Part shown: positions 40,591 through 63,510 of the stretch, piece after piece
How positions within the stretch are numbered: position 1 is the first letter of the stretch
How the letters are laid out: every line of letters starts with the position of its first letter
Assembly: GCA_964465205.1 (NCBI GenBank)
Contig: CAYXJO010000005.1
Span: 4,552-68,551 of the forward strand
Length of the DNA: 64,000 nucleotides
Source: an uncultured Gammaproteobacteria bacterium
GTDB lineage: Bacteria; Patescibacteriota; Patescibacteriia; Magasanikbacterales; GWA2-37-8
Reading direction: 5' to 3'
Translations under genes and position numbers: made by a program
Notes under the pieces: generated by a model
What the model was told of the DNA's origin: nothing
The model's database searches: none
Seen by the model: the letters and a program-made list of their open reading frames with translations, nothing else

Positions 40591-40670
40591 AAACAGCGGA
40601 TACAATATATTTTAGTGCCCAAGCTCCCTGCGGTCGAAGGGCACATAAAACATGTTGTATCCGCTGTTTT
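40591..40670. repeat. Long-hairpin element copy A (outer stem AAACAGCGGATACAA/TTGTATCCGCTGTTT, inner conserved TATATTTTAGTGCC ... GGGCACATAAAACATG)
   Basis: Second copy at 63410-63510 shows compensatory stem changes; a T-run follows. Confidence 0.6.
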
Positions 40671-40681
40671 GTTTAATTTTT

Positions 40682-41284
40682 TTATTTTCTATTTTTCAAC
40701 GCACTTCCGAGTGTGATTTCGTCGGCGTATTGCAGATCCGATCCCATTGGCAGTCCACGCGCCAGGCGTGTTATTTTTATTTTAGGATTAATTTTTTTGA
40801 TATTTTTTTCCAAATACATCGCCGTAGTTTCGCCTGGCAAGTCTGGATTTAGAGCCAAAATAATTTCAGTGACTTTTATTTTGGCCATTGGGTGACTGCG
40901 TTTCAGTAATTCGCGGATTTTTACTTTGGCGAAGTTTTCTTCGTTATCTACTTCTAACACACCGCGTAGTACGTGGTAAACGCCGTTGAACTGGTCGGTC
41001 TTTTCGATAGCCGGTACATCTTGGGGGTCGGCTACTACACACACGGTGGCATGATCGCGTTTCGTATTGGCGCAAACTGGGCAGGGGGTAGAGTCGGCGA
41101 AGTTCCAGCACAGTTCACAGCTTTTGGTGTTTTTGAGTAGTTCGTCCAATGCCGCTCGTAATTCGTTCACTTCGCCCTTGCCGGATTTAAGCAATCGAAA
41201 AACATACCGTTCGGCCGTGCGTTCGCCCACCGACGGTAGCTTTTTAAAGGCATTGATGAGATTAGTGATCGAGCGGGAGTACAT
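40682..41284 (-). CDS. recR: Recombination protein RecR
   Basis: MYSRSITNLINAFKKLPSVGERTAERY (HhH), C4 zinc finger CELC...CPVC, Toprim. Confidence 0.9.
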   Translation of the reverse strand: MYSRSITNLINAFKKLPSVGERTAERYVFRLLKSGKGEVNELRAALDELLKNTKSCELCWNFADSTPCPVCANTKRDHATVCVVADPQDVPAIEKTDQFNGVYHVLRGVLEVDNEENFAKVKIRELLKRSHPMAKIKVTEIILALNPDLPGETTAMYLEKNIKKINPKIKITRLARGLPMGSDLQYADEITLGSALKNRK

Positions 41285-41365
41285 AGAAATAATAAGTCGA
41301 TTATATATGTGTCGTAGCGACACTGCGAAGCACAAGGAGCGAGGCGCATGTATAATCGGCGCATG

Positions 41366-41680
41366 TTATTTCATCCCCGGCAAATTCAAACCATCGAGTC
41401 CGCCCATTTCTTGCATTTTTCCAGCCATCACACGTTGCATTTTTTTGAGCGCTTCGGCGTGAGCTTCTTTGAATCCGTTTTGGAGCCTTTCTTTTTTGTC
41501 GGGCGATAATAGCTCATCATCAATTGCGAGTCCGGTGATTTGCAGATTACCGTCCATGGTTAGCACGATTTTATCGCCAGCAGCGCGCACGGTGATAGAT
41601 TCTTTACCCAATACATCCTGTAATTTTTTGCTTTGGTCGCGTAGATCCTTGAACTGTTTGAGCTTTGAAAACATTGACAT
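41366..41680 (-). CDS. ybaB: Nucleoid-associated protein YbaB/EbfC
   Basis: 104 aa; ...QITGLAIDDELL... and C-terminal GLNLPG typical of YbaB. Confidence 0.8.
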   Translation of the reverse strand: MSMFSKLKQFKDLRDQSKKLQDVLGKESITVRAAGDKIVLTMDGNLQITGLAIDDELLSPDKKERLQNGFKEAHAEALKKMQRVMAGKMQEMGGLDGLNLPGMK

Positions 41681-41681
41681 A

Positions 41682-42857
41682 TTATTTTATGTTAATATTT
41701 AAATTTTGATATTTATCTTTGGCAAACTCTGTCTCGAGTTTGTGACTGATTTGGGTGATCTCATCACTGTACTTATCTTTTAGTTGTCCCCACGTTAGTT
41801 TTTCTATGAGGCTAGCAGACAATATACTTAGAAAATTTTCAAGGACCCCAGCTTGTAGTAGGTATTTTTTTACCAACGCAGTACCTTCTAGATATTGTTT
41901 AGCATCACTGATTTGTCCGCTGTCCCAATCGTTTCGTAGTTTTTCTAGTTCTTCATTCATCTCACGACGCATGTGTTTGTATTCTGGGCCAATTTCTTTG
42001 AGATGGATTTCACCGCGTCTTTCCAGGGGTAAAAATTTTTCTAAAAATTCTTCGATTGGTATGTATCCTGCCGCGGCTGGATAGGGCATTTGACCAGCTT
42101 CAAGTAATTGTTTGACACGTCTTTCATTTATTTGCCCATTACGATCCATAAACTGTAACCATACGTGCATGCCGTTTTGTGGTATCGGGCTGTCAACCGG
42201 GTGGAATCCGAGTATTTGTGTACGCGGATGACTAAGTAACCAAGAAGTCCCAATTACCGCTCGTGTTTGAGGGTATTTGTCTACAATTATTTCCGCTAGT
42301 TTGCTAAGTGATTGAAATACGTCTTGATCGTTTAAATCAGCCTTACCACTTTTGAAAAAAGGTTCGAAATGCACGTCTATAAATTCGTCTTCATTTGAAT
42401 AGCCAGCAGTGTGCGCCCAAGGTAAATCGCTTTTGGGATTGTATTTGATTAATCCAGCGGACATGTTTGGATCATGTTCGTGTTCTTTTGTTGGTAGCGG
42501 TGGCCATTGATTTTCAGCCTCGTCGATTAGTTTTTTTATTTCTTGTTGCCAATTTTTAGCATGATCGGAATGTATTTGATTGACTTGTTCTTCTATTTTT
42601 TGCATGTATTCCCAAGTCGATGGCAATGTGGCATCATTATGCCTGGCCAAACTATAACGATCTTGTAGTTTGTTGAATAGAGGACTATTTTTGTATAGTA
42701 TATCACCAAAATTTTCATTTCCTGTTTCTTCCATTAATTTTTCCGCATACAAAAACATTACATCACTAAGACGTTCTTTGTAGCTCTCCATATGCCTTTC
42801 GAAGTCAGTTGCTTCAATTGGTTTGAATATCTCGGGTGAAATACTTCGATGTTCCAT
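41682..42857 (-). CDS. Hypothetical protein (391 aa) in the dnaX position of a dnaX-ybaB-recR-like operon but without AAA+ motifs
   Basis: No Walker A/B seen; acidic and Trp-rich; co-directional and 1 nt from ybaB. Confidence 0.35.
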   Translation of the reverse strand: MEHRSISPEIFKPIEATDFERHMESYKERLSDVMFLYAEKLMEETGNENFGDILYKNSPLFNKLQDRYSLARHNDATLPSTWEYMQKIEEQVNQIHSDHAKNWQQEIKKLIDEAENQWPPLPTKEHEHDPNMSAGLIKYNPKSDLPWAHTAGYSNEDEFIDVHFEPFFKSGKADLNDQDVFQSLSKLAEIIVDKYPQTRAVIGTSWLLSHPRTQILGFHPVDSPIPQNGMHVWLQFMDRNGQINERRVKQLLEAGQMPYPAAAGYIPIEEFLEKFLPLERRGEIHLKEIGPEYKHMRREMNEELEKLRNDWDSGQISDAKQYLEGTALVKKYLLQAGVLENFLSILSASLIEKLTWGQLKDKYSDEITQISHKLETEFAKDKYQNLNINIK

Positions 42858-42866
42858 AGATTATTT

Positions 42867-44381
42867 TTAAAACGCTGGCTCTGGCCCTGGTGCACGTGGT
42901 GCTGGAGGTGATCCGGCCGGCCTGGCGAAAGCGGATTTGGGTTTTAGGGCCGGTGCCGCGTTAGTGCTGCCACCACCACTTGGGGCATGAAATTGTTTGT
43001 CCAAATTACGAAAACTGGTAGTCGGTTCGTTGAAGATCATTTTTACCATGCCAGTCGGACCGTTTCTGTGTTTGGCGATATGCACCTCGGCCAAATAACG
43101 TTCGTCGGGTGGAATATCTTCTAAGCGATAGTTGCGGTCGGCTGCTTTGCGGTAGATAAATAATACCACATCCGCGTCTTGTTCGATAGATCCGGATTCA
43201 CGCAAATGTGAAAGTTTTGGTATGGCAGGCTTGCTTTGTTCTACTGTACGAGAAAGCTGGGACAGTGCGAGCACTGGCACATTTAGTTCACGCGCAATAC
43301 CTTTGAGACCGCGAGTAATTTCGGCAATTTCTTGCACGCGATTTTCTTCCCGCCCCTTGCCGCGCGATTCCATAAGTTGCAAATAGTCGATAACAATTAG
43401 TCCTAATCCGTGCTCCATTTGCAAACGACGAGCTTTGGTGCGGATTTGCATGACATTAATATTTGGAGTGTCATCGATAAAAATTGGTGCTTCAGAAAGT
43501 ATACCCATAGCATGGCCAATGCGTGGGAAGTCGTCGGATTCGGGACGATCAGATAGTCGGCCGGTACGCATGCGCCACAGATCAATATTGGCTTCGGCGC
43601 AAAGTAAGCGATCCACTAACTGTTCCTTGCTCATTTCCAAAGAAAACATACCCACGGCAGTTTTTTGTTTGGTGCCCACATGACGCACCATATCCAAAGC
43701 CAAAGAGGTTTTACCCACACTAGGGCGAGCGGCCAAAATGACCAGGTCGGATTTTTGTAAACCGGCAAGCAAATTGTCCAAATCAGCAAAACCGGTAGGT
43801 ACGCCACGCAGTTTACCTTTATTGCGGTGTAGTTCGTCGATACGATCAAACGCCCCAGCCAACACACCGCGAATAGGTGTAAAGGCTTGTTTCATATACA
43901 CCTGCGAAACGCCAAAAATTTGTTTTTGAGCGTCATCAAGAATTTTTTCTACATCACCATCGTCTTCCTGAAAACTGAGACGAGTAATTTCTTGCGAAGC
44001 GGCCAGTAGTCGGCGACGTGTAGCCTTGCGGTGAATGATTTCCGCATAATGATTAGCATTGCTAGCCGTAGGCACGGCGTTGGATAATGCAGCCAAATAA
44101 GAACGTCCGCCCACATTTTCCAAAATTCCTTTTTCTTCCAAACGATTGGCGAGAGTGAGTAGGTCGATCGGGTCATTTTTGGAATATAGTTCTACAAATA
44201 TTTCATAGATACGACGGTGACCATCTTTATAAAAATCTTCCGCACTCACAATATCTGCCACGCGTAACATGGCATCTTTATCTATTAAAACCGAACCTAG
44301 TAGCGACATTTCTGCCTCTAGGTTTTGTGGGGGTATTTTTTCGATTTCGGTGATATCTGACATAGCTAAGTCATTGTACAA
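42867..44381 (-). CDS. dnaB: Replicative DNA helicase DnaB with Pro/Ala-rich GC-rich C-terminal tail
   Basis: N-terminal IPPQNLEAEMSLLGSVLID, Walker A ARPSVGKTSLALD, Walker B LIVIDYLQLM. The last ~40 aa, GGGSTNAAPALKPKSAFARPAGSPPAPRAPGPEPAF, are encoded by strikingly GC-rich DNA. Confidence 0.85.
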   Translation of the reverse strand: MYNDLAMSDITEIEKIPPQNLEAEMSLLGSVLIDKDAMLRVADIVSAEDFYKDGHRRIYEIFVELYSKNDPIDLLTLANRLEEKGILENVGGRSYLAALSNAVPTASNANHYAEIIHRKATRRRLLAASQEITRLSFQEDDGDVEKILDDAQKQIFGVSQVYMKQAFTPIRGVLAGAFDRIDELHRNKGKLRGVPTGFADLDNLLAGLQKSDLVILAARPSVGKTSLALDMVRHVGTKQKTAVGMFSLEMSKEQLVDRLLCAEANIDLWRMRTGRLSDRPESDDFPRIGHAMGILSEAPIFIDDTPNINVMQIRTKARRLQMEHGLGLIVIDYLQLMESRGKGREENRVQEIAEITRGLKGIARELNVPVLALSQLSRTVEQSKPAIPKLSHLRESGSIEQDADVVLFIYRKAADRNYRLEDIPPDERYLAEVHIAKHRNGPTGMVKMIFNEPTTSFRNLDKQFHAPSGGGSTNAAPALKPKSAFARPAGSPPAPRAPGPEPAF

Positions 44382-44481
44382 GATTGGTTATTTGGGCGCA
44401 ATAGTTTGCCTGGGGAAAAAGTGTGGAGAGAGTGTGCAGTAGTTGTGATTATTTTTTAGGTCTTCTCATATTGATAAAATT

Positions 44482-46686
44482 ATGGCACAATATCTTGGTA
44501 TGATCCGTAAATTGTCTACCGAATTTTTTGGTTTAGCAATATTGGCTATTTTAATATATTTCAACATTGATCGTTGGCACAGTTTTTGGCTGGGCGGATT
44601 TTTGTTTTTGGTTTATTTGTTGGTTTTGGGCACATATTACCGTCGGGTACTGACCAAATTTTTTAATTTTTTGGACAAGACCACCACTGTGTTTGTAGGT
44701 GCGTTTCTTGGTCTGTTTATTTTTGCGGGATTAAGTGGTGTGGGGGTGGTATTTTATCGTTTGGACGCTGCGGTTATTGCTGGTGCGATTTTTATTTCTG
44801 GTGCGTTGGGTAGTGTATCGCACGAATGGGCCGAACGAGCTCGTCGTGCCCACACCGAAGTTTCCGATTTGGATGATAATATAGCCAAAGAACAAATTCC
44901 TAATGTACATTTTGGTGCTTTAGTGTTTTTGGTATTAACAGCTTACGGATTTTATTTATTAGCGCACTCGGTCACTGGTACGGCCATTGATACGCCATGG
45001 TGGGCTATTCATCCGTATTTTTTGTATGTCTTTATAATAGCTACCCTAATTATAGGTGTATTAGTCTTCTCACAATTACGCGCTCGCACCATCTTGTTGT
45101 TGTTAATAATTTATACATTTTTGCTACATTCGTATTTGCCTCTGACACATGAATTGTTTTACGGCGCAGATCAGTGGCGTCATTTGGCGGCTGAGAGCCG
45201 TATTGTGCAAGGGCTCAATCCAGGCACGGTATCTATCGAAAGTGCTGATACGCCATTTTTTCTTTCCAGTACGCCCGGGTCACTTTTCTATAGTCAGTTT
45301 TGGGGGTTATCGGTGGCATTGGGGCAAGTTTTACAAGTGGATTTAATTACGATTGCCAAATGGCTTTTGCCAATTATTTGGTCGATTATATTTCCGTTAT
45401 TAGTTTACAATATAGGTTTACGAATTTTTTTGCATAAAAAATTGGTTTTATTTTTAATCTGGCTAACCGCTTTGCCGTTTGCGCTGACAGTAAGCGGTTC
45501 ACTCACTTTGCCGTCCAATCTAGGGTTTTTGTTTTGGTTGTTGACCATTGTGTTGATATTGTCTCGGTTGAAAGAAAAAAGATATGAACAAATAATTATT
45601 TTATCTATTTTGGGAATTTTTTCTGTTTTTGGATATGGCTTGTATTTGCTTTTATTTATCGGTGCGTGGATATTGGCCGAAATATTGTCTGCTAAATTTT
45701 TTATAAAACATAAAAAATATTTAGCTTGGATGTTAGGAGTGGGTGTGGCAGTAGCTTTGCCAACGGTTGAATTGGTTGTGAAATATAGTGAATGGGGGAG
45801 TAGGTTTGGTTTTTGGGGCGGTATAAAACAATTTTTTGGGAATTTCACCGCGTGGTATTTGGCTACCGGCCCGCGCCCGCACACTATAGACACCGGTAAT
45901 GTGTTTTTTAATCAGGTGCCCGCCGCGGCTTTTGTTGCCAATTTTTTTAATCAGGATTTATGGTGGTTGGTAATATTGGCAAGTACGATACTCCTTATGG
46001 GCTTAGTTGGATTGGTAGTTGCTTTACGCAGTCGTGATAGTCGCCATCAATTTTTTGCGTTTTTGTTTATTGCTTTGTTCGGCGGTTATTTTGTTTGCCG
46101 TTATTTGCTCAGCGGGGCCAATATTATTTCTCGTCGACTAGATGCACCACTCGCGTTTTTGATAATAGTGTTAGTGATGTTAGCTGCCCAAACAATCTGG
46201 TTGAAATATTTTGAAAAGATTCAAAATTGGCAAAGACGCACAGTGCTATTAATTTGTATTGCAGTCTTGTCTATTGGAGTAGGTGTTTCGTATAGTTTGG
46301 GACCGAATTTAAATACCACCTCCACTGATGCCTGGCGAGCTATGAAATATGTGTACGAACAGACTACAATGTATGTAGGCGCTCCGTGCGTTTTGGCCGA
46401 TACCTATCCTTTGTTGGGTTTGGAGTATTTGTCTAGCAAAAAAATAGTGGGTGGGGGGTTCCCAATGGGTGATAATTTCTCTCAAGTTGAACGAGTGAAA
46501 CTGTTTGAGAGTATGAAGTCTGATCCTGCCGCCGATATTTTTGTCCGCGCTCACGGAATCACGGGCGCCAATATTTGTTATTTTGTAGTAGGTAGTAAAG
46601 AAATAAAGTACAACGGTTATACTTATCGCGAGAGTGATGGTTGGAAATTGTTTGGTGATTATATTGTTTGGAAGAATGTTAAATAA
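44482..46686 (+). CDS. Large polytopic membrane protein (734 aa), possible GT-C-like glycosyltransferase/polymerase
   Basis: More than 12 hydrophobic helices plus a C-terminal soluble domain; no motif confidently recognised. Confidence 0.3.
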   Translation: MAQYLGMIRKLSTEFFGLAILAILIYFNIDRWHSFWLGGFLFLVYLLVLGTYYRRVLTKFFNFLDKTTTVFVGAFLGLFIFAGLSGVGVVFYRLDAAVIAGAIFISGALGSVSHEWAERARRAHTEVSDLDDNIAKEQIPNVHFGALVFLVLTAYGFYLLAHSVTGTAIDTPWWAIHPYFLYVFIIATLIIGVLVFSQLRARTILLLLIIYTFLLHSYLPLTHELFYGADQWRHLAAESRIVQGLNPGTVSIESADTPFFLSSTPGSLFYSQFWGLSVALGQVLQVDLITIAKWLLPIIWSIIFPLLVYNIGLRIFLHKKLVLFLIWLTALPFALTVSGSLTLPSNLGFLFWLLTIVLILSRLKEKRYEQIIILSILGIFSVFGYGLYLLLFIGAWILAEILSAKFFIKHKKYLAWMLGVGVAVALPTVELVVKYSEWGSRFGFWGGIKQFFGNFTAWYLATGPRPHTIDTGNVFFNQVPAAAFVANFFNQDLWWLVILASTILLMGLVGLVVALRSRDSRHQFFAFLFIALFGGYFVCRYLLSGANIISRRLDAPLAFLIIVLVMLAAQTIWLKYFEKIQNWQRRTVLLICIAVLSIGVGVSYSLGPNLNTTSTDAWRAMKYVYEQTTMYVGAPCVLADTYPLLGLEYLSSKKIVGGGFPMGDNFSQVERVKLFESMKSDPAADIFVRAHGITGANICYFVVGSKEIKYNGYTYRESDGWKLFGDYIVWKNVK

Positions 46687-46723
46687 TTAGGTTTAATAAT
46701 TTATTCAAATTAATCAATAATTT

Positions 46724-47125: not shown

Positions 47126-47129
47126 TATT

Positions 47130-47690: not shown

Positions 47691-47696
47691 AGTCAG

Positions 47697-47725
47697 TTAC
47701 AAATTTTATAATTTTGTGCTATAAT
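47697..47725 (+). promoter_or_regulatory. Promoter TTACAA-17-TATAAT (extended TGTGcTATAAT); -10 ends 6 nt before the ATG, implying a leaderless mRNA
   Basis: ttacaaattttataattttgtgcTATAATatccgcATG. Confidence 0.45.
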
Positions 47726-47731
47726 ATCCGC

Positions 47732-49666
47732 ATGCCAGAAAACACTAATTCTAGCGGTACACCCAATCAAATTCTCGGCAATCCCGAGGTGAATTTTTTT
47801 GGCGTCACCAATTATCGTAATCAAAATCGCAAATTTGGTATTAAGCTCGACGACCGTCGCCGGCATGTTTATGTTATCGGAAAAACCGGCATGGGCAAAA
47901 CTACATTGCTCGAAAACATGATCCTCAACGATATTTATGCCGGGCATGGAGTGGGTTATGTGGATCCGCATGGTGACACAGCCGAGAAACTACTCGACTA
48001 TATTCCACCTCATCGTATTAATGATGTGGTGTATTTCAATCCGGCGGACATGGATTATCCGATCGGTTTTAATATTCTAGAAACTATTCGTCCGGAACAG
48101 AAACATTTGGTAGCGTCGGGCCTGATGGGAGTATTTAAGAAAATTTGGCCGGATGTCTGGAGTGCCCGTATGGAATATATTTTGAATAATTCTATTTTGG
48201 CATTGATTGATTTTCCTAATTCCACACTACTCGGTATCAATCGTTTGCTTGCTGATGACGAGTTTCGCGCCCGTGTGGTGGGTAATACCAAGGATCCGGT
48301 GGTAAAAGCTTTTTGGATGAATGAATTTGCCGGTTACAACGATCGTTATAAACAAGAAGCGGTCGCGCCTATCCAGAATAAAATCGGTCAGTTTTTGTCC
48401 GCGTCTATTATCCGCAATATCGTAGCGCAGGTAAAATCCAGTATCGACATCCGCGATATCATGGATCACAAAAAGATTTTTATCATGAATTTGTCCAAGG
48501 GCCGTATTGGTGAAGATAATTCGCGCTTGCTTGGTGGTATGCTTATCACCAAATTACAATTATCGGCAATGGAGCGTGTAGATATTCCCGAAAAAGATCG
48601 CAATGATTTCTTTTTATACGTTGATGAGTTCCAAAACTTTGCCACTGAAAGTTTTTCCAATATATTATCCGAGGCACGCAAATACCGTTTGGGGCTTATT
48701 ATGGCGCATCAGTATATGGAACAGCTGTCTGAAGAAGTACTCGCCGCCGTCATCGGTAACGTCGGTACGATTATTTCATTTCGTGTTGGTTCGACTGATT
48801 CGGAAATTTTGGAAAAAGAATTTGCCCCGGTTTTTATGGCGACGGATATTGTCAATCTGGCCAAATTTCAAATATTTTTAAAACTAATGATTGACGGTGT
48901 GGCTTCACAACCTTTTTCCGCCATGACTTTACCACCCATCGCTCAGCGCACTGCCAGTCTAGACAAAGTAATTCGGGTTTCTCGTGAACGCTATGCGGTG
49001 TCACGCGACAAGATTGAAGACAAGATAGCACGATGGAGCGGCATGACTATTGGTGAAGATGGTAATGGATCGGATGACGAATTTGATGTAGATACCACTA
49101 CAGAAAAAAAGGTGCCAGATACCGTCGGTGCGGTATTGCTACGACCGAAATCAGCATCCGCCCCCGTGCGTAGTGCCGAACCGAATCGTGTGCCAAATAA
49201 AAATTTTTCCAATGATAAAAAATCTTTTGGTGGTAGCATGACCAGTGCCAAACCGAAATCAGAAAATCGGCCACCAGTCAGCGGGGGAGACCGAAGCGGT
49301 CGAGGGACAAATTCTGAGCGTGTGGCACCAAATCGTGATACGCGACCGGTTCGTAAACCAGATAATAATCGCAATAATAAAATTGATAAACCTAATCATG
49401 CCCCCAAGCCCGAAATAAATGTACCGCCTTCCCAAGCGATGCCGATCGAGCTTGTAGATACTACCCAACCCGGTATTAGTTTGATGGCTGCTATGCATAC
49501 CAATCCGCTGGCCAAACCAGAGCCTTCAGAACCAGAGGAAATTCAACCACAGCAACAAGTAATCTCGCCACCGCCAGCCACAGACCCACAACCTACCAAA
49601 CCATCGATTTTACCGTCATCTTCGCCGAGAAATATCAATTCTGGGCAAATTGTAAAATTAGATTAA
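47732..49666 (+). CDS. AAA-like ATPase of the TraD/VirD4/DUF87 coupling-protein type with about 180-aa disordered Pro/Ser/Asn-rich C-terminal tail
   Basis: Walker A VIGKTGMGKTTLL, Walker B FFLYVDEFQNF; the region after ~aa 470 is low-complexity (PKSEN, RPV repeats, QPQQQ). Confidence 0.5.
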   Translation: MPENTNSSGTPNQILGNPEVNFFGVTNYRNQNRKFGIKLDDRRRHVYVIGKTGMGKTTLLENMILNDIYAGHGVGYVDPHGDTAEKLLDYIPPHRINDVVYFNPADMDYPIGFNILETIRPEQKHLVASGLMGVFKKIWPDVWSARMEYILNNSILALIDFPNSTLLGINRLLADDEFRARVVGNTKDPVVKAFWMNEFAGYNDRYKQEAVAPIQNKIGQFLSASIIRNIVAQVKSSIDIRDIMDHKKIFIMNLSKGRIGEDNSRLLGGMLITKLQLSAMERVDIPEKDRNDFFLYVDEFQNFATESFSNILSEARKYRLGLIMAHQYMEQLSEEVLAAVIGNVGTIISFRVGSTDSEILEKEFAPVFMATDIVNLAKFQIFLKLMIDGVASQPFSAMTLPPIAQRTASLDKVIRVSRERYAVSRDKIEDKIARWSGMTIGEDGNGSDDEFDVDTTTEKKVPDTVGAVLLRPKSASAPVRSAEPNRVPNKNFSNDKKSFGGSMTSAKPKSENRPPVSGGDRSGRGTNSERVAPNRDTRPVRKPDNNRNNKIDKPNHAPKPEINVPPSQAMPIELVDTTQPGISLMAAMHTNPLAKPEPSEPEEIQPQQQVISPPPATDPQPTKPSILPSSSPRNINSGQIVKLD

Positions 49667-51664: not shown

Positions 51665-51667
51665 ATT

Positions 51668-54796: not shown

Positions 54797-54803
54797 TATT
54801 TAC

Positions 54804-54911: not shown

Positions 54912-54927
54912 TACAAGTTAATTATTT

Positions 54928-55413: not shown

Positions 55414-55422
55414 AATATTCAT

Positions 55423-58400
55423 ATGCCCAAGAAACAACAATCAGGAGAAGCTGGCGTGAAACCAGAACATGGATTTGTTGGTAAAAATGATGGTGTACGT
55501 CGAGATCGTACTCGTAAAAAAACTCACCAAGACACAGGAGAAATGTCGGAACATTATGATTCGCAGGAAGTCAGACTGGATGCGGATGTGTTGGCCACTT
55601 GGGATACTGTCGAATATAAAATCAACAATCTTTCGCAAAGTAACCTAGATCATTTTTTGGCAACTGGGGCGCAGTGGGGGTGGTTTTCTGCTTCTGATAT
55701 GGAAAGCGATCTTGGAAACAAGCTAGCATTGATTGACGAGATTAAGACAAAAGACAATATTACAAAAGACGAAGCAAGAAAATTTCGTAATCTTGTGAAA
55801 GAGTTGGGTGAACATTTGGAAGAAATGGATAAAATCTACGGTTGGTTGTCAGAGCCAGCAATCGCCGAAGCCCCGGTGACAGTGGAGGAAAAACCAGAAT
55901 CCCCAAAAGAATTTTCTGCCGATGACCAAAAAATGTGGGAAGAGATTTTGGTAGAAGTAGAGGACGGATGGGCCAATCCAGCACAAGATGTGGAAGGTGT
56001 AGAAGTGGACAAGGCTGCATACGATACTACCCAATCTATACCCGAAAAAGCGACGAAAGAAGATTTGGCTAGTAAAGATAAGAGAATTCGCGATAAAGAA
56101 AAATTGGGATATTTTTTTGATTCCAAAACCGGTTTGTTAAAAATTGGATCAAAAGTAGAAGTTAACTTAAGTGTTCCTGGTACAGAATTAATTTATACGC
56201 CGGTACGTTTGAGTGAAGATAAAAAAACTCCACGCGGTTTTGAAATTGCTTGGAAGAAAACTACCGATAGCACAGTGATACAAGCTTTGGATATTGCGAT
56301 GGATGAGTTTGGTAGATTGTCTATGAAAATGAAGGGCCAGGCGGTAGAGGGTGGTAGGTCTGGCTTTAGAACTAAATCTACCAGAGATGCAAGTGCCGCT
56401 GATATAGATGAAGACCTGGACCAACTGAAAGCTTCTTTAGATTTTTTAGTTTTTAAAATAAGAAGAATGTTTGCACTGGCTGGTGTAGAACAGGCATTTT
56501 ATACACACGAAGAATCACAGGCGGTAGCGGCAGAAATACCTCTTGTGCAATCTACCGAAGAAATTTTAAATGAAGACAATGATCCGCCGCGCGCCAAATT
56601 GCGAGAAACCAAAATACATCAATTAGTAGAATCTGCCAAAAAGACCACTAACGAAAAAAAGCGGCACAAACTTTTGTCCGAAGCCATGAATAAAATAACC
56701 AAAAGGTTAACTGTCTTACCGAACGCGACTCATTGGTGGGTTTATATGGCTTATGTCGGTCATTTATTGGGCGATACTCAAACAGTGAAAGAAGCCTTAA
56801 ATAAGGTAGTTGAAAAAGACCCAAACAACGAAGTGGCCAAAAAGATTTTGGATAAAATGGAAAAAGGCGAAACGAATGTTGAACCGGCTGGGGCGGAAGC
56901 GATGAAAGTGACGGCAGAGGCGGATAATGCCAGTGTGGTAGCGACAGAAAAAGACACACCGAAAAAAGTTGATGCACCCGCCAAAAAAGAAAAATTACCC
57001 AAACCAGTTGCTGTCAAAACAGCGGTCGAGCCAGCCACAGAACCGGCAGTAGAACAAAAGGAAGATAGTCTGGAGTTAACCAGAGAAAGATTGGTAGATG
57101 CTGTAGAAAAAGGTGTGGATATTTTGAAAACCGCCATTCGCAAAGCCGCTGGTGAAAAGAAAAATAGACTTGATTGGGTGGTGGATGCAGTTAATCGCGC
57201 ATTGGCAGTAGCCAAAGGCGCCGAAGATGGAAAAATCGAAGTGTCAGCTGGTGGGCAAACCCAACGTGAAGGTGTGCCAGTGGATGACTTGATAGAAGAA
57301 TTGCAGATTTTGGCAATTAATACCAAAAAGAAAAAAGAGCAGGATGAGATTAATCATATTGTTAAACTGTTGAGTGATAATAGTTTGCGTTATTTTGAAG
57401 ACGCCCATCCGGAAGTAATGGATGAAGTGGGAAAACCGTGGAACAGGCAACATTGGCGTACCCAGCTTGAGGCGTATTATATTTCTGGTGACAAAGATTA
57501 TCGCCGTACCGGTAACATGGAAGAAGATTATAAGAAAGCAATGGAAGCAATGAGTAAGCGTCGCGAGTTAAATTTGGATCAATTTAACAAACCAAAAAAG
57601 ACAACCAAACCAGATAATTTTCAACCAGTGGCGGTTATTAAAGGACACACAGCCCCTATTTCATCGGTTGAGCCAAACGGCGCATCGGTTGCGACAGAAC
57701 CTCAAGACATGTCAGTGCCAGACAACCAAAATATTTCAGTGTCGTCCGCAGAAGCCCAACATAATGCCGGTGTAGATAAAAAGAAAAACCAAAAACAAGA
57801 GGAAACCGTTTCCTCTGATTGGTCTTCGTCGTATTTTAGAAAAGAAAATGAAATAGTGCCAACCACAGGGGTCATGTCTAAAATGACTACAGCTGAATTG
57901 GCTCGCTGGCGCGAGTATAATGAATGGGCGGTGTGTTTGGCGGCCGCCTCTGAGGGTGGTTTAGCGCAATTGGCCGATCCCAAGTTGGAAGATCGTGTGG
58001 AATTCAATGATATGATACGCGGTTTGGTGGATGTTTTTGCTGTTCATGGACGTGTACAAGAAAAAAGTGGGCAGGTAAAAAAGATGGATTATGCCGATTT
58101 AGATGGTCGTACGTGTATCAAGTTGTTATCAATGGCTGGTTTTAAAACCAATCTACAAGAGGGTGAAAATAAAGAAACTGGCAATGTAGATTTTTCTGTA
58201 CCGGGTAAGGCGGTAAAAAATGCTTTTAACACCGACACGGGTGGTCGTGACGGGTTTAGTTTTAACGTGTCTTTGGCCAAAGACGCCAATCCAAGATGGC
58301 AAAATATTGCTTATAACAAAATTCGCGGTGTTACGACCGTACTCGATCATCATGCGTGGTTTTCCAATCCTGATTCTTCGGCTGCCAGTTTTGTGTATGG

Positions 58401-59238
58401 GTGGCTTACCGAACATGGTTATTTGAAAAGAACTAAGGAGCTAGATCGTATTATGGATTTTGTCACCACCATTGATTCGATGTCTAATTTTGGTTATGGC
58501 TACAATAGACGTGGGGATACCAAATTGCGTACTGAAATTAAGCATGTTTTTGAGAGATCATATCGAACTTTGGTTGGTATGGCTAGATATGTACCGTTTG
58601 AAAAATACGATGAATTGTTTCGTCTGGTTTCGAGAAAAGATTTTGATATACACAAAGAACTGACTAATGATGAAATGGTAATGTTAGGTATTGTGGAACA
58701 CGAAGATATTTTGCGCGCGGTGGACGGGGGATTTGCCTCGGGTGAGAGTCGGACCAACCCTTATTACAAAGAAAAAACGAATGTTGAAAATACCGCCGCT
58801 GTATTTGAAGAAATGAAAAAAAATGGGTTAGTAATTTCTGTGGATCCGCCCGATAAAAAAGGTCCACCAGTGAAAGTTGCTATCAATTTACGCGGGCAAG
58901 GATTTCCACAGTTGCCAACCGGTTTCAATGGTGCGGTGGCTTGTGGCGCTGATATTTTTGTGGATTGGAATGAAAAACAACAAAGTTTTTTTGTTTCGTC
59001 GGCGTTTAAGTTACCAAAAGATATTAGAAATGTGGAGGGACTGACCGACAAGGATGGAGTTTATTTTGTACGCCAAACCATGCTTATCAAACCACTCACA
59101 TTAGACAGGCAAGATAGAAAAGATAGAAAAATAATCCCTTTCAAAATCAGTCTGGGTAATTTGTTAGACAATGTGGTGGGGACAAATTGGGAGCCAAATG
59201 GTGTGTTGAAGGATTATTTGGATAATCATAAGGTTTAA
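55423..59238 (+). CDS. Giant hypothetical protein (1271 aa), acidic N-terminal half with coiled coils, C-terminal globular region with a possible DHH-like motif
   Basis: Single uninterrupted ORF. The C-terminal VLDHHAWFSNPD and DxD-like patches hint at a DHH phosphoesterase-like domain (weak). Confidence 0.5.
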   Translation: MPKKQQSGEAGVKPEHGFVGKNDGVRRDRTRKKTHQDTGEMSEHYDSQEVRLDADVLATWDTVEYKINNLSQSNLDHFLATGAQWGWFSASDMESDLGNKLALIDEIKTKDNITKDEARKFRNLVKELGEHLEEMDKIYGWLSEPAIAEAPVTVEEKPESPKEFSADDQKMWEEILVEVEDGWANPAQDVEGVEVDKAAYDTTQSIPEKATKEDLASKDKRIRDKEKLGYFFDSKTGLLKIGSKVEVNLSVPGTELIYTPVRLSEDKKTPRGFEIAWKKTTDSTVIQALDIAMDEFGRLSMKMKGQAVEGGRSGFRTKSTRDASAADIDEDLDQLKASLDFLVFKIRRMFALAGVEQAFYTHEESQAVAAEIPLVQSTEEILNEDNDPPRAKLRETKIHQLVESAKKTTNEKKRHKLLSEAMNKITKRLTVLPNATHWWVYMAYVGHLLGDTQTVKEALNKVVEKDPNNEVAKKILDKMEKGETNVEPAGAEAMKVTAEADNASVVATEKDTPKKVDAPAKKEKLPKPVAVKTAVEPATEPAVEQKEDSLELTRERLVDAVEKGVDILKTAIRKAAGEKKNRLDWVVDAVNRALAVAKGAEDGKIEVSAGGQTQREGVPVDDLIEELQILAINTKKKKEQDEINHIVKLLSDNSLRYFEDAHPEVMDEVGKPWNRQHWRTQLEAYYISGDKDYRRTGNMEEDYKKAMEAMSKRRELNLDQFNKPKKTTKPDNFQPVAVIKGHTAPISSVEPNGASVATEPQDMSVPDNQNISVSSAEAQHNAGVDKKKNQKQEETVSSDWSSSYFRKENEIVPTTGVMSKMTTAELARWREYNEWAVCLAAASEGGLAQLADPKLEDRVEFNDMIRGLVDVFAVHGRVQEKSGQVKKMDYADLDGRTCIKLLSMAGFKTNLQEGENKETGNVDFSVPGKAVKNAFNTDTGGRDGFSFNVSLAKDANPRWQNIAYNKIRGVTTVLDHHAWFSNPDSSAASFVYGWLTEHGYLKRTKELDRIMDFVTTIDSMSNFGYGYNRRGDTKLRTEIKHVFERSYRTLVGMARYVPFEKYDELFRLVSRKDFDIHKELTNDEMVMLGIVEHEDILRAVDGGFASGESRTNPYYKEKTNVENTAAVFEEMKKNGLVISVDPPDKKGPPVKVAINLRGQGFPQLPTGFNGAVACGADIFVDWNEKQQSFFVSSAFKLPKDIRNVEGLTDKDGVYFVRQTMLIKPLTLDRQDRKDRKIIPFKISLGNLLDNVVGTNWEPNGVLKDYLDNHKV

Positions 59239-59335
59239 TTTGGCTAATTTTGGCCAAATTATAGTTTTGTGGCCAAAGACTCTTGACTAATTCTATTATT
59301 TCCGCTAAAATAATAGCGGATTAAGTTTTTTACAA

Positions 59336-59554
59336 ATGGTAAAGAATAATGACAATATCGAGCTGACTGGTAAAATTGCAGAACTTCTTCCAGCCGGGAC
59401 TTTTCGAGTAACTCTCGAAAGTGGGCAGACAATCGTCGCTCACTTGGCTGGCAAGATGCGTCTCAACAAAATCAGACTTGGCATCGGCGATAAAGTAAAG
59501 ATAGAAATGACGCCATATGATTTGACCAAGGGTCGAATCACTTATCGTTACTAA
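59336..59554 (+). CDS. infA: Translation initiation factor IF-1
   Basis: [35 protein letters not shown] is the canonical IF-1 S1 fold. Confidence 0.9.
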
Positions 59555-59715
59555 TCCAAACAATACAACTAAATAATATATCAACCAGTGCGGTGGAGTT
59601 CCCGCTTTAGGGCAATATGTCTAAAGGGGACGAGGATATCGCGGCAGTGGTTGGTATTTTAGCTTACCTATTAATTTAATATAAAGAAGTTTTCATTAAT
59701 TTCATTTTAATTCCT

Positions 59716-59829
59716 ATGAAAGTGTGTGCTTCGGTAAAAAAAGTGTGCGCCAAGTGTAAAACAGTGCGCCGCAAAGGAAGAGTACAAGTAATTTGTGCTA
59801 ATCCAAAACATAAACAACGTCAAGGTTAA
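59716..59829 (+). CDS. rpmJ: 50S ribosomal protein L36
   Basis: Hand translation [37 protein letters not shown]; below the ORF-track size cutoff. Confidence 0.9.
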
Positions 59830-59846
59830 TTAATTACCCAATTTTT

Positions 59847-60233
59847 ATGCGTATCAGTGGTATCAACATTCCCAAGGAGAAAAAAGTGCGGATTTCACTC
59901 CGTTATCTTTATGGTATCGGTCCGGCTTTGGCCGATCAAATATTGGAGAAAGCAGGTATCGATGGCAATATTCGCGTGAAAGACCTAACTACCGCGCAAC
60001 AAGATAAGCTGCGTGAATTGGTAGAAAAAAATCACAAAACCGAAGGTGATTTGCGTCGTGAAGTAATCGCGAATATCAAGCGTATGAAAGATGTAAAGTG
60101 CTATCGCGGCATTCGTCATATGAAACATTTGCCAGTACGTGGTCAACGCACCAAAACTAATTCTCGTACTGTACGTGGCAATGTGCGCAAGACAGCTGTT
60201 TCCGGTAAAAAACCAGCAGCCCAGAAGACCTAG
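59847..60233 (+). CDS. rpsM: 30S ribosomal protein S13
   Basis: MRISGINIPKEKKVRISLRYLYGIGPALADQIL. Confidence 0.9.
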   Translation: MRISGINIPKEKKVRISLRYLYGIGPALADQILEKAGIDGNIRVKDLTTAQQDKLRELVEKNHKTEGDLRREVIANIKRMKDVKCYRGIRHMKHLPVRGQRTKTNSRTVRGNVRKTAVSGKKPAAQKT

Positions 60234-60273
60234 TATAATAATTTTATTTACGAAAAAAGAATAATTTAAAATT

Positions 60274-60732
60274 ATGTCAGAAGAAGTAAAGCAAGCTGTG
60301 GTAGCGGCAGCCGATCCGGCTACTGCGTCCACCGTAGAAGAAAAGACGCCCAAAACCAAAAAAAGCAACAAAAAAGCGGTCAAACAAGTAGTGCGTGGCA
60401 ATGTCTATATTCAAGCTAGCTACAACAATACTATTGTGACCATTACTGATCCAAACGGCAATGCTTTGGCTTGGTCTTCGGCTGGTATTGCAGGGTTTAA
60501 AGGACCAAAGAAAGCCACTCCTTATGCCGCTAGTATGGTGGTGAAGGCTGTGGTGGACAAGTGTGCTCAATACGGACTCAAAGATGTTACTATCTATGTC
60601 AAGGGTATTGGTGGTGGTCGCGAAGGCGCTATCCGTGCTTTGCATGCCAATGGTTTGAATGTAGCTTCAATTAACGAAGTTACCCCAATCCCACACAATG
60701 GCTGTCGTGCTCCGAAACGTCGCCGTGTTTAA
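60274..60732 (+). CDS. rpsK: 30S ribosomal protein S11 (with N-terminal Ala/Lys-rich extension)
   Basis: GNVYIQASYNNTIVTITDPNGNALAWSSAG...KGPKKATPYAA. Confidence 0.9.
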   Translation: MSEEVKQAVVAAADPATASTVEEKTPKTKKSNKKAVKQVVRGNVYIQASYNNTIVTITDPNGNALAWSSAGIAGFKGPKKATPYAASMVVKAVVDKCAQYGLKDVTIYVKGIGGGREGAIRALHANGLNVASINEVTPIPHNGCRAPKRRRV

Positions 60733-60756
60733 TTTGTTTATTTCCTCACTTTAAAT

Positions 60757-61383
60757 ATGACTCAAGAATTAGACTCCAAATGTTCCAAATGCCGACGCGC
60801 CGGGGAAAAATTGTTTTTGAAAGGCGATAAGTGTTTGGGACCAAAATGCCCCATACTCAAGCGTAATTTTCCGCCTGGACAACATGGTGTGGCGAGCAAA
60901 CGCAATAAACCATCAAGTTATGGCCGTCAATTGCGTGAAAAACAAGAAGCCAAACAACACTATGGTTTGCGTGAACGACAATTTGAGAACTATGTAGAAG
61001 AAGCCGCTCGTAAAATTGGTGATACTAGCAAGTATCTTATCAATTATTTGGAATCACGTTTGGACAATGTGGTGTTCCGCATGGGTTTTGCTCCTTCGCG
61101 CAGTATGGCTCGTCAATTGGTAAGCCATGGACATATCACTGTTAATGGTAAAAAATTAGACATTGCCTCTTATCGCGTGAAAGTCGGCGATGAGATTGCG
61201 TTGTCTACCAAAGCTCATTCCAAAAAAGCTTTTGAAAATTTGGCTGAAAAATTAGGCAAATACGAAGCTCCAAGCTGGCTTCACGTAGATGCCAAAAAGT
61301 TCGCTGCCAAAGTACTCAACACACCCACGGTCGATGTGGTTCCGTTTAATCCAAAAGCGATTATTGAATTTTATTCTCGTTAA
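60757..61383 (+). CDS. rpsD: 30S ribosomal protein S4
   Basis: Zn-ribbon CSKCRRAGEKLFLKGDKC, ...YGLRERQF.... Confidence 0.9.
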   Translation: MTQELDSKCSKCRRAGEKLFLKGDKCLGPKCPILKRNFPPGQHGVASKRNKPSSYGRQLREKQEAKQHYGLRERQFENYVEEAARKIGDTSKYLINYLESRLDNVVFRMGFAPSRSMARQLVSHGHITVNGKKLDIASYRVKVGDEIALSTKAHSKKAFENLAEKLGKYEAPSWLHVDAKKFAAKVLNTPTVDVVPFNPKAIIEFYSR

Positions 61384-61427
61384 TTTTCTCGTCCGACTTT
61401 GTGCGGATGGGGTAATTTAAATTACCT

Positions 61428-62255
61428 ATGGAAAATATACTCTTGCCCTCCAAAGTGGAGTTCATGGAGGGTGCCAATCCGAATATGGGGACTGCTATCA
61501 TCACCCCTTGTTATCACGGATATGGTACCACTTTAGGCAATGGTTTGCGTCGCGTGCTTTTATCTTCTTTGCCGGGCGCAGCTGTTGAGGCCTTCAAAAT
61601 CAAAGGCGTACAGCATGAGTTTAGCGCTGTTGAGGGTGTTCAGGAAGATGTGGTGGAAATTATGCTTAACTTAAAACAAGTAGCGGTGAAAGTGTTTACC
61701 GATGAACCGGTGGTTTTGACAATTAATAAAAAAGGTCCTGGTAAAGTGACTGCTGGCGATATTGCTCGCGATGCTAATGTGGAAATTATCAACAAAGATT
61801 TGGTTATTGCCAATCTTACCACCAATAAAGCTTTTGAGATGGAAATCACTGTCGGTCGTGGTCGTGGTTTTAAACCGGTAGAAGAGAAAAATCGTCAAAA
61901 TTACGATTTGGGAACTATCGTGATTGATTCTATTTACACTCCTATTAAGGATGTTGGTTACAAAGTGGAATACACCCGCGTGGGCGATATTACCAACTTC
62001 GAAAAATTGACTATTAATATCGAAACCAACGGCACCATCACTCCTCAAGCAGCGCTCTATCAATCCACTCAGATTCTCATGGATCATTTTTCGGTAGTGC
62101 TTAATGGTATTGGTGCTCAAGAAGAAGTCCGTGTAATGGAAGAATCTGTTACTGAGGATAATGACGATGAATCAAGCGAAGAAAACACCGGCGATGAAGA
62201 AATCGAAAAGAAAGAGAAGAAACCTCATGCCAAAAAGACAACTAAAAAGAAATAA
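61428..62255 (+). CDS. rpoA: DNA-directed RNA polymerase alpha subunit, N-terminal domain only; C-terminus replaced by an acidic/basic low-complexity tail
   Basis: Alpha-NTD motifs are present (GTTLGNGLRRVLLSS, ...EVVEIMLNLK...). After ~aa 235 the sequence is EESVTEDNDDESSEENTGDEEIEKKEKKPHAKKTTKKK, with no helix-hairpin-helix alpha-CTD. Confidence 0.8.
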   Translation: MENILLPSKVEFMEGANPNMGTAIITPCYHGYGTTLGNGLRRVLLSSLPGAAVEAFKIKGVQHEFSAVEGVQEDVVEIMLNLKQVAVKVFTDEPVVLTINKKGPGKVTAGDIARDANVEIINKDLVIANLTTNKAFEMEITVGRGRGFKPVEEKNRQNYDLGTIVIDSIYTPIKDVGYKVEYTRVGDITNFEKLTINIETNGTITPQAALYQSTQILMDHFSVVLNGIGAQEEVRVMEESVTEDNDDESSEENTGDEEIEKKEKKPHAKKTTKKK

Positions 62256-62265
62256 TTTTTAAAAT

Positions 62266-62616
62266 ATGCGCCATCAAATGAAAAAGGTGAAATTAGACCG
62301 TAAGGCGGGACCGCGCAAAGCGCTTCTGGCGAGTTTAGCGGCGAGTCTAGTTTTGTACGAAAAAATTAAAACCACCAAGGCAAAAGCCAAAGCTTTGAAA
62401 TCTTTGGTCGAAAAAATGATTACCAAAGCCAAAGCCAATACTTTGGCTGGTCGTCGCGCCATCGCTGCGGAACTTAAACAAGAGAATGCCGTACGAAAAC
62501 TCATGGAAGTATTGGGACCGCGTTATGCCGAACGAAAAGGCGGGTATACTCGTATTGTACTTCTCAAAAATCGTAAAGGTGACGGAGCCGAAGAAGTATT
62601 GATTGAATTTGTGTAA
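62266..62616 (+). CDS. rplQ: 50S ribosomal protein L17
   Basis: MRHQMKKVKLDRKAGPRKALLASLA.... Confidence 0.9.
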   Translation: MRHQMKKVKLDRKAGPRKALLASLAASLVLYEKIKTTKAKAKALKSLVEKMITKAKANTLAGRRAIAAELKQENAVRKLMEVLGPRYAERKGGYTRIVLLKNRKGDGAEEVLIEFV

Positions 62617-62629
62617 TTAATTTTGTAAT

Positions 62630-62977
62630 ATGACCAAAAGAAAAGCAATCGAAATTGATGCTACCGGCATGGCTCCCGGACGTCTTGCCTCTCAAATTGC
62701 GGGTTTGATTATGGGCAAGGGTAAACCTAGCTATGTCCCATATAAAGATATGGGGGACAAGGTAGTGGTAAAAAATGTGAAATACATTAAATTTACCGGT
62801 AAAAAAATTGATCAAAAAGTCTATCGTCATCACAGTAATTATCCGGGTGGTCTAAAAGAAATTCCAGCCAAGAAAATGATGGAAAAACCGGACAAAGTCG
62901 TACTGCATGCGGTAGCCAAGATGATTCCGAAGAATAAAATGCGCACTGATCGTTTGCGCAGAGTATCCTTTAAGTAA
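62630..62977 (+). CDS. rplM: 50S ribosomal protein L13
   Basis: IDATGMAPGRLASQIAGLIMGK...YRHHSNYPGGLKE. Confidence 0.85.
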   Translation: MTKRKAIEIDATGMAPGRLASQIAGLIMGKGKPSYVPYKDMGDKVVVKNVKYIKFTGKKIDQKVYRHHSNYPGGLKEIPAKKMMEKPDKVVLHAVAKMIPKNKMRTDRLRRVSFK

Positions 62978-62988
62978 TTCTGATACCT

Positions 62989-63396
62989 ATGACTAAAATA
63001 AATCGTGGTAAAGAAGTGTATCGCGCAGTTGGTCGCCGCAAGACATCAGCCGCCCGCGTACGCATCGATAAGGGTAGTGGTAACATTACCGTTAATGGTG
63101 TGGATTATAAAGAGTATTTTCCATATTTTGAAATGCGTGATGCCATTATCGCCCCACTCAAAGCTTTGGCCAAAGAAAAAGATTTGGATGTGTCCGCCAA
63201 AGTTAGTGGATCTGGTAAAAAAGCGCAATCTGTTGCCGTACAACACGGCATCGCGCGCGCTTTGGTGGTGTGGAATGATGAATTCCGCAAGACCCTCAAA
63301 ACTCTTGGTTTTTTGACTCGAGACGCTCGTGCCAAAGAACGCAAGAAATTCGGTCTCAAACGCGCTCGTCGCGCACCGCAGTGGAGCAAACGCTAA
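62989..63396 (+). CDS. rpsI: 30S ribosomal protein S9
   Basis: AVGRRKTSAARVRI..., C-terminal KFGLKRARRAPQWSKR. Confidence 0.9.
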   Translation: MTKINRGKEVYRAVGRRKTSAARVRIDKGSGNITVNGVDYKEYFPYFEMRDAIIAPLKALAKEKDLDVSAKVSGSGKKAQSVAVQHGIARALVVWNDEFRKTLKTLGFLTRDARAKERKKFGLKRARRAPQWSKR

Positions 63397-63409
63397 ATTC
63401 TATATTTTC

Positions 63410-63510
63410 AAAGACGGATAGAATATATTTTAGTGCCTAGTTCGCCCGAATATTAATTTTAAATTAATGTGGGCTCATAAGTCACAAAAATATGTTCTAT
63501 CCGTCTTTTT
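63410..63510. repeat. Long-hairpin element copy B (outer stem AAGACGGATAGAA/TTCTATCCGTCTT, inner conserved TATATTTTAGTGCC ... GGGCTCATAA...ATATG)
   Basis: Shares architecture and the 14-nt core TATATTTTAGTGCC with copy A at 40591-40670; a T-run follows. Confidence 0.6.

Follow-up and report, generated by a model that had tools for sequence, protein, structure and literature searches.

What are the two long hairpins that stand directly behind the ribosomal-protein genes rplU and rpsI in a 64-kb stretch of DNA (the window, by which we mean this whole stretch), and why do they share part of their inner sequence? The hairpin after rplU is called copy A and the one after rpsI copy B. The family to which they belong is real, structurally conserved and previously undescribed, while its general kind, that of repeated intergenic palindromes with a second role as terminators, is familiar. 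Most likely its members are duplicative palindromic repeats similar to MITEs (miniature inverted-repeat transposable elements) and REPINs, which serve as Rho-independent terminators and 3′ stabilisers. To the complete explanation that we favour, namely a family of long modular repeats restricted to Candidatus Magasanikbacteria, spread or kept uniform by duplication and acting as terminators, we give an even chance.

Two long hairpins in the terminator position

A and B are the top two inverted repeats of the window by length (I2 and I1, respectively). Their helices of 29-40 bp are interrupted and AT-rich, and in neither case was any of 200 shuffled sequences equally stable (minimum free energy −42.4 kcal/mol and z-score −8.6 for A, −44.6 kcal/mol and −11.3 for B). 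The arms of the outer stem are CAGCGGATACAA/TTGTATCCGCTG in A and AGACGGATAGAA/TTCTATCCGTCT in B, and directly 3′ of the stems there is a T-run (TTTTGTTT after A, TTTTT after B). The two copies are composed as follows (R1 denotes the covariance model used for scoring).

40591..40670, plus strand: copy A, whole hairpin (fold; inverted repeat I2; R1, 66.1 bits)
40591..40608, plus strand: A-tract and basal 5′ arm of A, AAACAGCGGATACAATAT, pairing with 40652-40669 in the fold
40610..40620, plus strand: core 5′ arm of A, TTTTAGTGCCC, pairing with GGGCAC and TAAAA (40639-40650, with the A at 40645 bulged)
40621..40638, plus strand: apical segment of A, AAGCTCCCTGCGGTCGAA, unrelated to the inner module of B
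40652..40683, plus strand: basal 3′ arm of A, ATGTTGTATCCGCTGTTT, leading into the T-rich tract TTTTGTTTAATTTTTTT up to the recR stop codon
63410..63510, plus strand: copy B, hairpin and T-run (fold; inverted repeat I1; R1, 105 bits)
63410..63431, plus strand: basal 5′ arm of B, AAAGACGGATAGAATATATTTT, forming 22 bp with 63487-63508 in the fold
63433..63447, plus strand: core GTGCC of B, internal-loop strand TAGTTC and helix strand GCCC
63450..63470, plus strand: AT-only apical hairpin of B, ATATTAATT-TTA-AATTAATGT (fold)
63471..63485, plus strand: GGGC of B, internal-loop strand TCATAA, and GTCAC, which pairs with GTGCC with one C/U mismatch
63487..63510, plus strand: basal 3′ arm of B, AAAATATGTTCTATCCGTCTTT, ending in TTTTT (sequence, fold)

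A preliminary description of this DNA had reported two long hairpins after rplU and rpsI with their stems, a core, a 3′ segment and T-runs, and all of these parts lie where it had placed them. It had also claimed an identical core of 14 nt. This 14-mer, TATATTTTAGTGCC, occurs exactly at 40606-40619 (A) and 63424-63437 (B), and only these two times in 64 kb, and what the copies share is longer than was claimed: the common stretch CGGATA[C/G]AATATATTTTAGTGCC is identical at 22 of 23 positions and is, by blastn, the sole significant cross-match of the two copies in the window (E about 1e-3). Homology extends to the 3′ arms, with the segment GGGCACATAA at 40639-40648 in A and GGGCTCATAA at 63471-63480 in B.

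As had been proposed, each copy stands behind a ribosomal-protein gene where a terminator would be expected. Like intrinsic terminators, they consist of a stem-loop with a U-tract a few nucleotides past the stop codon (10 nt after rplU, 13 nt after rpsI), in the same slot as the terminators of relatives, and the A-tract of A provides the mirror arrangement for the convergent gene recR. On the minus strand, copy A begins 11 nt past the recR stop codon and is followed by GTTTAATTTGTATTTT. The A-tract is strong in A and weak in B, which has no convergent neighbour. Unlike intrinsic terminators, which have GC-rich stems of about 5-14 bp and a small loop, A and B have AT-rich stems of about 30-40 bp with internal loops, and their inner sequence is kept from one locus and species to another, which is not normal for terminators. 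Elsewhere between 30 and 64 kb of the window, short GC-rich terminators with stems of 7-11 bp stand at six or more gene ends, so that A and B form a distinct class; a consensus terminator scan picked up these short terminators of other genes and neither A nor B.

Since the copies take the place of the terminators of relatives, are followed by a U-tract and, in A, preceded by an A-tract, and since no second hairpin stands between either copy and the next gene, we infer that A is the Rho-independent terminator of rplU, predicted to act in both directions, and B that of the S13-S9 operon. RNA polymerase that has passed through rplU, or through rpsI as the last gene of its operon, would transcribe the element, the nascent RNA would fold into the interrupted hairpin of 30-40 bp, and the U residues directly behind it would allow factor-independent termination; in A, the upstream A-tract would serve recR in the same way. 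The long stem could protect the 3′ end or be a substrate of RNase III. It probably shields the 3′ ends from exonucleases. The proposal of an independent small-RNA gene, in contrast, is unlikely to be correct, because hairpins which start 10-13 nt past a stop codon leave no room for a promoter in between.

Copies, short forms and empty sites in relatives

Relatives were sampled around rplU and rpsI only, and the sample is thus biased towards these loci. The gene order around rplU (GT4, DUF192, rplU, and convergent recR-ybaB-dnaB) is kept in them. In locus L078, whose L21 protein is 82% identical, two tandem copies follow rplU: c1 (543-632; AAAAACGAGTAGCATTTTAGTGCCTAGTTCGCCAGATATTTAAAAATATTTGTGGGCTCATGAGGCACAAAAATACTACTCGTTTTT) and c2 (650-827). 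JGI and ENA assemblies made independently of each other (L078 and L079) agree fully in c1, which rules out an assembly artefact. Scores with model R1 are 75.9 bits for c1 and 61 bits for c2, with E-values of 1e-11 to 1e-15. Copy c2 has a basal stem of 29 bp and the same inner module as B and c1, but carries an extra branched insert of 75 nt (L078 703-790) in the 3′ strand of the internal loop. The insert has its own 10-bp hairpin, GAATAGCAAAT-TTAT-TTGCTATTC, which results in a multi-branched structure of about 187 nt, and has no match in Rfam.

Two further relatives carry short forms, so that the family extends beyond A and B, as the preliminary description had supposed. In L010, the closest relative at rplU (L21 86% identical), there is a short hairpin, AAACAGCGGAC-ataatgattgc-GTCCGCTGTTTTTT, whose left flank and stem are identical to the basal stem of A (ATTAAACAGCGGA ... 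TCCGCTGTTTT), including the first 10 nt of A, and whose loop CATAATGATTGCG resembles the next stem layer of A. In L080 (L21 81%), rplU is followed by a 20-bp hairpin, AAAAAAACGGAGTAGAATA-caatgaaaaaaa-TATTCTACTCCGTTTTTTT (R1, E 0.002). Its stem matches the basal stem of B, the AT-rich layer included (ACGGA-TAGAATA / TATGTTCTA-TCCGT), the motif ACGGA(G)TAGAATA being present both in the basal arm of B and in this stem, and its loop keeps the motif CA..AAAAATAT from the 3′ arm of B. The loops of both short forms thus retain vestiges of longer arms. A U-tract directly after the hairpin is also present in c1, c2, L080 and L010.

Other relatives have plain terminators. Unrelated short GC-rich terminators follow rplU in L020, L147 and L148; the latter two are the closest relatives of the L078 species (L21 91% and 88%), yet have no copies. 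After rpsI, plain terminators are found in L005 and L008 (S9 80% and 76%). In L009, the closest relative at this locus (S9 91%), the available sequence ends 29 nt past the stop codon; it begins with ACAAAAGCCGGTACCA, which agrees with the basal arm of c2 at 11 of 13 positions, which is no more than suggestive of a further family member. Within the window there is one possible minimal relative, weakly supported, which may be a generic terminator:

33790..33829, plus strand: short terminator AAAAGCGGAC...GATCCGCTTTTTT, its basal stem similar to that of A (best hit of R1 after A and B, 18.8 bits, E 0.07)

Some observations on the rplU-recR spacer may be added. It is a hotspot of lineage-specific orphan genes, which were found in L010 (2860-3034, 181 aa), in L020 (2992-3189, 65 aa) and in L078 (856-1173, a C-terminal fragment of an unrelated gene, of which 105 aa are seen before the contig ends). 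The L078 orphan adjoins the element and that of L010 the short form, while that of L020 comes after the unrelated short terminator. None of the three has an NCBIfam match, the L078 orphan has no Pfam match either, and those of L078 and L010 show no mutual similarity. In L010, two terminators on the minus strand follow each other at a distance of about 100 nt. The second, AAGCTCCC-CGAAGGGAGC (L010 2865-2885), sits outside the L010 rplU hairpin and is resembled by the apical segment of A, AAGCTCCC-tgcggt-CGAAGGG (40621-40638), which may reflect an exchange of modules between hairpins or chance.

We aligned B, c1, c2 (with the insert removed) and A with the hairpin structure imposed (alignment A2). 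In this small set of four sequences, 92% of the cells are standard pairs, and 17 of the 40 pairs have changed on both sides while none has changed on one side only; values as high were obtained in 0 of 500 shuffles. When the 3′ partner was slid by 1-3 columns as a control, pairing fell to 37-50%. RNAalifold independently found the same helix, with 31 pairs of which 17 are compensatory. Between A and B, the four differing basal pairs are all double changes (C-G to A-U, A-U to G-C, G-C to A-U, and C-G to G-C). The claim that the outer stems differ in a compensatory way and stay paired is thus borne out, with far more support than two copies could give.

The further claim, that selection acts on structure rather than on sequence, does not hold. 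The basal stem is kept only in its pairing, but the core arms and the internal loop of 6x6 nt (UAGUUC / UCAURA) are conserved in primary sequence, and B, c1 and c2 do not differ in the unpaired strands UAGUUC and UCAU while half of the basal pairs have changed. The core 5′ arm TTTTAGTGCCC of A is also found in B and c1, and CCTAGTTCG of B is identical in c1 and c2. Identities in the individual parts are:

B versus c1, core arms and internal loop: 38/41 (93%)
B versus c2, apical hairpin: 18/20, with one swap from U-A to A-U
B versus c2, basal stem: 18/38
A versus B (one genome, two loci), basal stem: 29/38

Overall identity between the rplU genes of the window and L078 is 77%, and at third codon positions it is 58%, so that, at 93%, the core is conserved far beyond neutral sites. 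Copy B, which follows rpsI, is nearer to c1, which follows rplU, than A is, and similarity therefore does not go by orthology of the locus; copy A lacks the inner module altogether. This mosaic pattern suggests that copies have exchanged sequence or moved, that the core is under strong constraint, or both.

Repeat family or dedicated RNA

From the outside to the inside, the family is built of an A-tract, a basal stem of 18-29 bp which is variable in sequence and always paired, and a conserved core, AUUUUAGUGCC ... GGCAC-AAAAAU. In copies of the B type there is also an inner module, in which the invariant internal loop leads to a GYCC/GGRC helix and to an apical hairpin of A and U only. The mirror arm and the T-tract come last. 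The arms, of the type AAAAGACGGTACATACAATTTAATTGCC, extend over 22-29 nt with at most one mismatch, and they enclose interiors of 18-130 nt in which the longest open reading frame has at most 43 aa. Some characteristics of MITEs are thus present: terminal inverted repeats around a short non-coding interior, filled sites (L078) and empty sites (L147 and L148) among close relatives, and copies at multiple loci, with two non-homologous loci occupied in one genome and a tandem pair in another. We propose that the elements could have been spread or homogenised by duplication, by transposition or by gene conversion among copies, in the manner of MITE, REPIN and ERIC-type repeats, and that apical deletion would let them decay into short terminators of ordinary appearance. 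The invariant core and internal loop may be the site for a putative protein, which could be a mobilising enzyme or an RNA-binding factor.

The best-known small palindromic repeats of this kind are REP/REPIN sequences, which are mobilised by RAYT proteins. These are extragenic palindromes forming long hairpins with compensatory changes, they occur singly or in tandem in 3′ intergenic regions, and roles in termination and mRNA stability have been proposed for them (PMC3116915, PMC3337134, PMC3733652, PMC2817692). The family described here resembles them in its palindromic extragenic hairpins, in pairing upheld by compensation, and in single or tandem 3′ copies. It differs from them in having neither a conserved GTAG/CGTC tag nor GC-rich units of 20-40 nt, in the lack of a RAYT gene in the window, and in copy number, with two copies seen per 64 kb against the hundreds per genome of REP/REPIN. 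At the position equivalent to the tag we find ATAC in A, ATAG in B, GTAG in c1 and L080, and GTAC in c2. With no conserved tag and no RAYT gene seen, we do not assign the family to REP/REPIN. Of the earlier suggestion of a REP/BIME-like or small-RNA family, a family of terminators and repeats is what stands, and membership in REP/BIME is what falls.

The Correia/NEMIS elements of Neisseria and the ERIC elements of enterobacteria and Yersinia are small palindromic repeats of the MITE type that double as RNA elements. They share with the present family a length of 80-190 nt, terminal inverted repeats of 22-29 nt, a variable or modular interior, presence that varies among relatives, and cotranscription with flanking genes as long hairpins able to terminate or to be processed. 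In contrast to them, neither a demonstrable target-site duplication nor a cognate transposase nor a high copy number was found here, all copies stand after rplU or rpsI, and the arms co-vary perfectly whereas those of the known elements decay independently. Inverted DNA uptake sequences (DUS of Neisseria, USS of Haemophilus) were considered as well; there, too, a short conserved inverted pair forms a terminator, and the basal arms contain CCGTCT as does the Neisseria DUS. As uptake sequences occur about once per kb and the conserved 14-mer only twice in 64 kb, this identity was rejected.

Some further identities were discarded. A promoter inside the core is not supported, as TACAAT and TAGAAT resemble −10 elements but no −35 element accompanies them. 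An attenuator of the downstream gene does not fit A, which faces a convergent gene, and small open reading frames within the element are spurious only. An autoregulatory leader of ribosomal proteins was rejected because all copies are 3′ of the last cistron and none is in a 5′ untranslated region (UTR) or an intercistronic region.

Several results count against a mobile repeat family. When the 64 kb were searched with model R1 and all filters off, A and B were the only significant hits, and the position after rplU or rpsI, common to all copies, is as compatible with a dedicated function as with mobility. Among the about 65 open reading frames of the window, Pfam revealed neither a transposase nor a RAYT gene. 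An autonomous element with the same terminal inverted repeats and a transposase was seen neither in the window, nor in the loci retrieved from relatives, nor in the collections of phages and plasmids. In the four copies, no unambiguous target-site duplication is visible, the A/T tracts being part of the palindrome. The genome and metagenome collections were scanned for exact short arm or core patterns only, never for the whole element. The pattern ATATTTTAGTGCCN{12,42}GGCNCATAA, which is too specific to A and B, gave 4 chance hits in GTDB genomes. In JGI metagenomes, a 22-mer had no match and TANAATATATTTTAGTGCC had 55 matches, none of them with a hairpin partner. In IMG/VR, a 16-mer gave 63 chance hits, the B/c2 module gave none, and a gapped module pattern gave 9 matches, which represent two families of phage coding sequences. 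A distant BLAST search of c1 and c2 against phages and plasmids also gave no match. Finally, G-U pairs are in slight excess on the plus strand (A 1, B 2, c2 1; pairs that are G-U on the minus strand only: A 1, c1 1), so that selection may act on either the RNA or the DNA.

The alternative that survives best, although we consider it improbable, is a dedicated structured RNA in the 3′-UTR of ribosomal-protein operons, a cis-regulator or 3′-derived small RNA whose loop and core would bind an RNase, a ribosomal protein or a chaperone and which would be inherited mostly vertically with occasional duplication. In the window, which is an unbiased sample, both copies follow rplU or rpsI and no other gene end has one, and the invariant unpaired strands amid changed basal pairs are the usual signature of a functional motif. 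The plus-strand folds of B and c1 are more stable than the minus-strand folds, and U-G pairs are kept at the same columns (one in A and B, another in B and c2). Such an RNA is difficult to reconcile with the patchy distribution, loci L147, L148, L020, L005 and L008 being without the element, and with a copy A that has no inner module. A tandem duplicate and an insert of 75 nt in the conserved loop would be odd for a tuned regulator, and likeness that fails to track locus orthology (B-c1 exceeds A-c1) speaks against vertical descent. In Rfam 15, the window, both copies and L078 yielded, at gathering and permissive thresholds, only models of hairpins resembling miRNA precursors, far below threshold. 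Known motifs were rejected by inspection: the K-turn for the lack of tandem GA on both strands, loop E or sarcin-ricin for the lack of AGUA/GAA, and the hammerhead for the lack of CUGAUGA. A more specific version, that the element is not selfish DNA but a 3′-UTR RNA specific to Patescibacteria, in which the loop (UAGUUC/UCAURA) and a GUGCC/GGCAC clamp would bind a protein or RNase and couple termination, mRNA stability or small-RNA output to ribosome synthesis, appears slightly less probable still.

It is also unlikely that only the inner 60-80 nt (TA-[C/G]AATATATTTTAGTGCC ... ATGTT[G/C]-TA) are a mobile hairpin that was inserted into the loops of host terminators, the outer stems of A and B being unrelated terminators. 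Such insertion would account for the flank and basal stem of A, which are those of the stand-alone L010 terminator, and for B and c1, whose cores are 93% identical on different basal stems. In each of the two copies, the shared part lies between TA dinucleotides, which are situated inside the stem and inseparable from the palindrome. But the basal stem of B reappears as the whole hairpin of L080, where both the species and the locus are different, and the likeness of the L010 loop to the next layer of A fits an apical deletion in L010 better. In addition, A has C...G and B has G...C just inside the putative TA, a difference that one would not usually expect of transposon ends.

Quite improbable, in our estimate, is an element that acts at the DNA level, as a cruciform or single-strand hairpin for recombination, replication or protein binding, with termination being incidental. 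Double changes without one-sided intermediates fit arm-to-arm correction of a DNA palindrome equally well as they fit RNA selection, and all 17 varying pairs are of this kind. The minus-strand folds also come near the plus-strand folds in stability, being slightly more stable in A and c2. A DNA-level role would, however, leave unexplained that the T-runs are always on the sense side of the upstream gene, with a weak A-tract in B, and that G-U pairs are kept although the opposite strand would have A-C mismatches there. Neither a recombinase nor a relaxase gene adjoins A or B, and an integron attC site was rejected by inspection, as its R-box consensus (RYYYAAC/GTTRRRY) is absent.

That A and B are ordinary, independently evolved terminators with a chance likeness is excluded: AT-rich 14-mers do recur by chance (4 or more matches with up to 2 mismatches were obtained in 1 of 100 shuffles), but this does not produce a stretch shared at 22 of 23 nt together with homologous 3′ arms in the top inverted repeats of the window, nor homologues in other species at the E-values found with R1.

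Genomic surroundings and significance

The genes next to the two copies are the following.

40275..40580, plus strand: rplU (L21; Pfam Ribosomal_L21p, E 3e-31), with a promoter-like site at 40211-40239 (promoter scan)
40682..41335, minus strand: recR (Pfam RecR domains), convergent with rplU
62989..63396, plus strand: rpsI (S9; Pfam), the last gene of the cluster infA-rpsM-rpsK-rpsD-rpoA-rplQ-rplM-rpsI

On its 3′ side, copy B is flanked by a co-directional GNAT gene (Pfam). The nearest homologues of S9 and L21 are from metagenome-assembled genomes of Candidatus Magasanikbacteria (Patescibacteria).

Upstream of the rplU promoter there is a strong sigma70-like promoter at 39924-39952 (TTGACA-17-TATACT with TG), after which about 235 nt without a credible open reading frame lead to a GC-rich terminator at 40171-40190. 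The region 39924-40195 has no Rfam match and a fold z-score of −2.8, and in L010 the gap between DUF192 and rplU is only 64 nt; it is a candidate for a small RNA or an rplU leader.

At the left end of the window, positions 1-6164 are probably an integrated island, adjoining tRNA-Asn (6090-6164, minus strand). This island codes for a Vsr endonuclease (791-1282), a fusion of RadC-JAB and C5 cytosine methylase (2272-4029), an HTH regulator (4031-4255) and a large serine recombinase (4656-6131), which is the sole recombinase among the about 65 open reading frames and the end of which overlaps tRNA-Asn. Just past the island there are long hairpins at 6484-6541 and 6609-6661. Elsewhere, a VirD4/TraG-like coupling ATPase (47714-49666) is found amid housekeeping genes. 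Two large open reading frames (734 aa and 1271 aa; 44482-46686 and 55423-59238) are without a Pfam match.

The genomes of Patescibacteria (the Candidate Phyla Radiation, CPR) are tiny and are believed to contain few repeats and little regulatory RNA. Palindromic repeats that double as terminators are well known in proteobacteria and Neisseria. In Candidatus Magasanikbacteria, a family that could be defined from only four copies, with 17 compensatory pairs, replaces ordinary terminators at the ends of ribosomal-protein operons, and covariance model R1 provides the means to scan CPR genomes for it. If the family is dispersed, it would be the first MITE/REPIN-like terminator repeat described for the phylum and a marker of genome dynamics. 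If it is restricted to ribosomal-protein operons, it would represent a new regulatory RNA of 3′ ends, a cis-regulator of ribosomal proteins that is placed 3′ rather than 5′.

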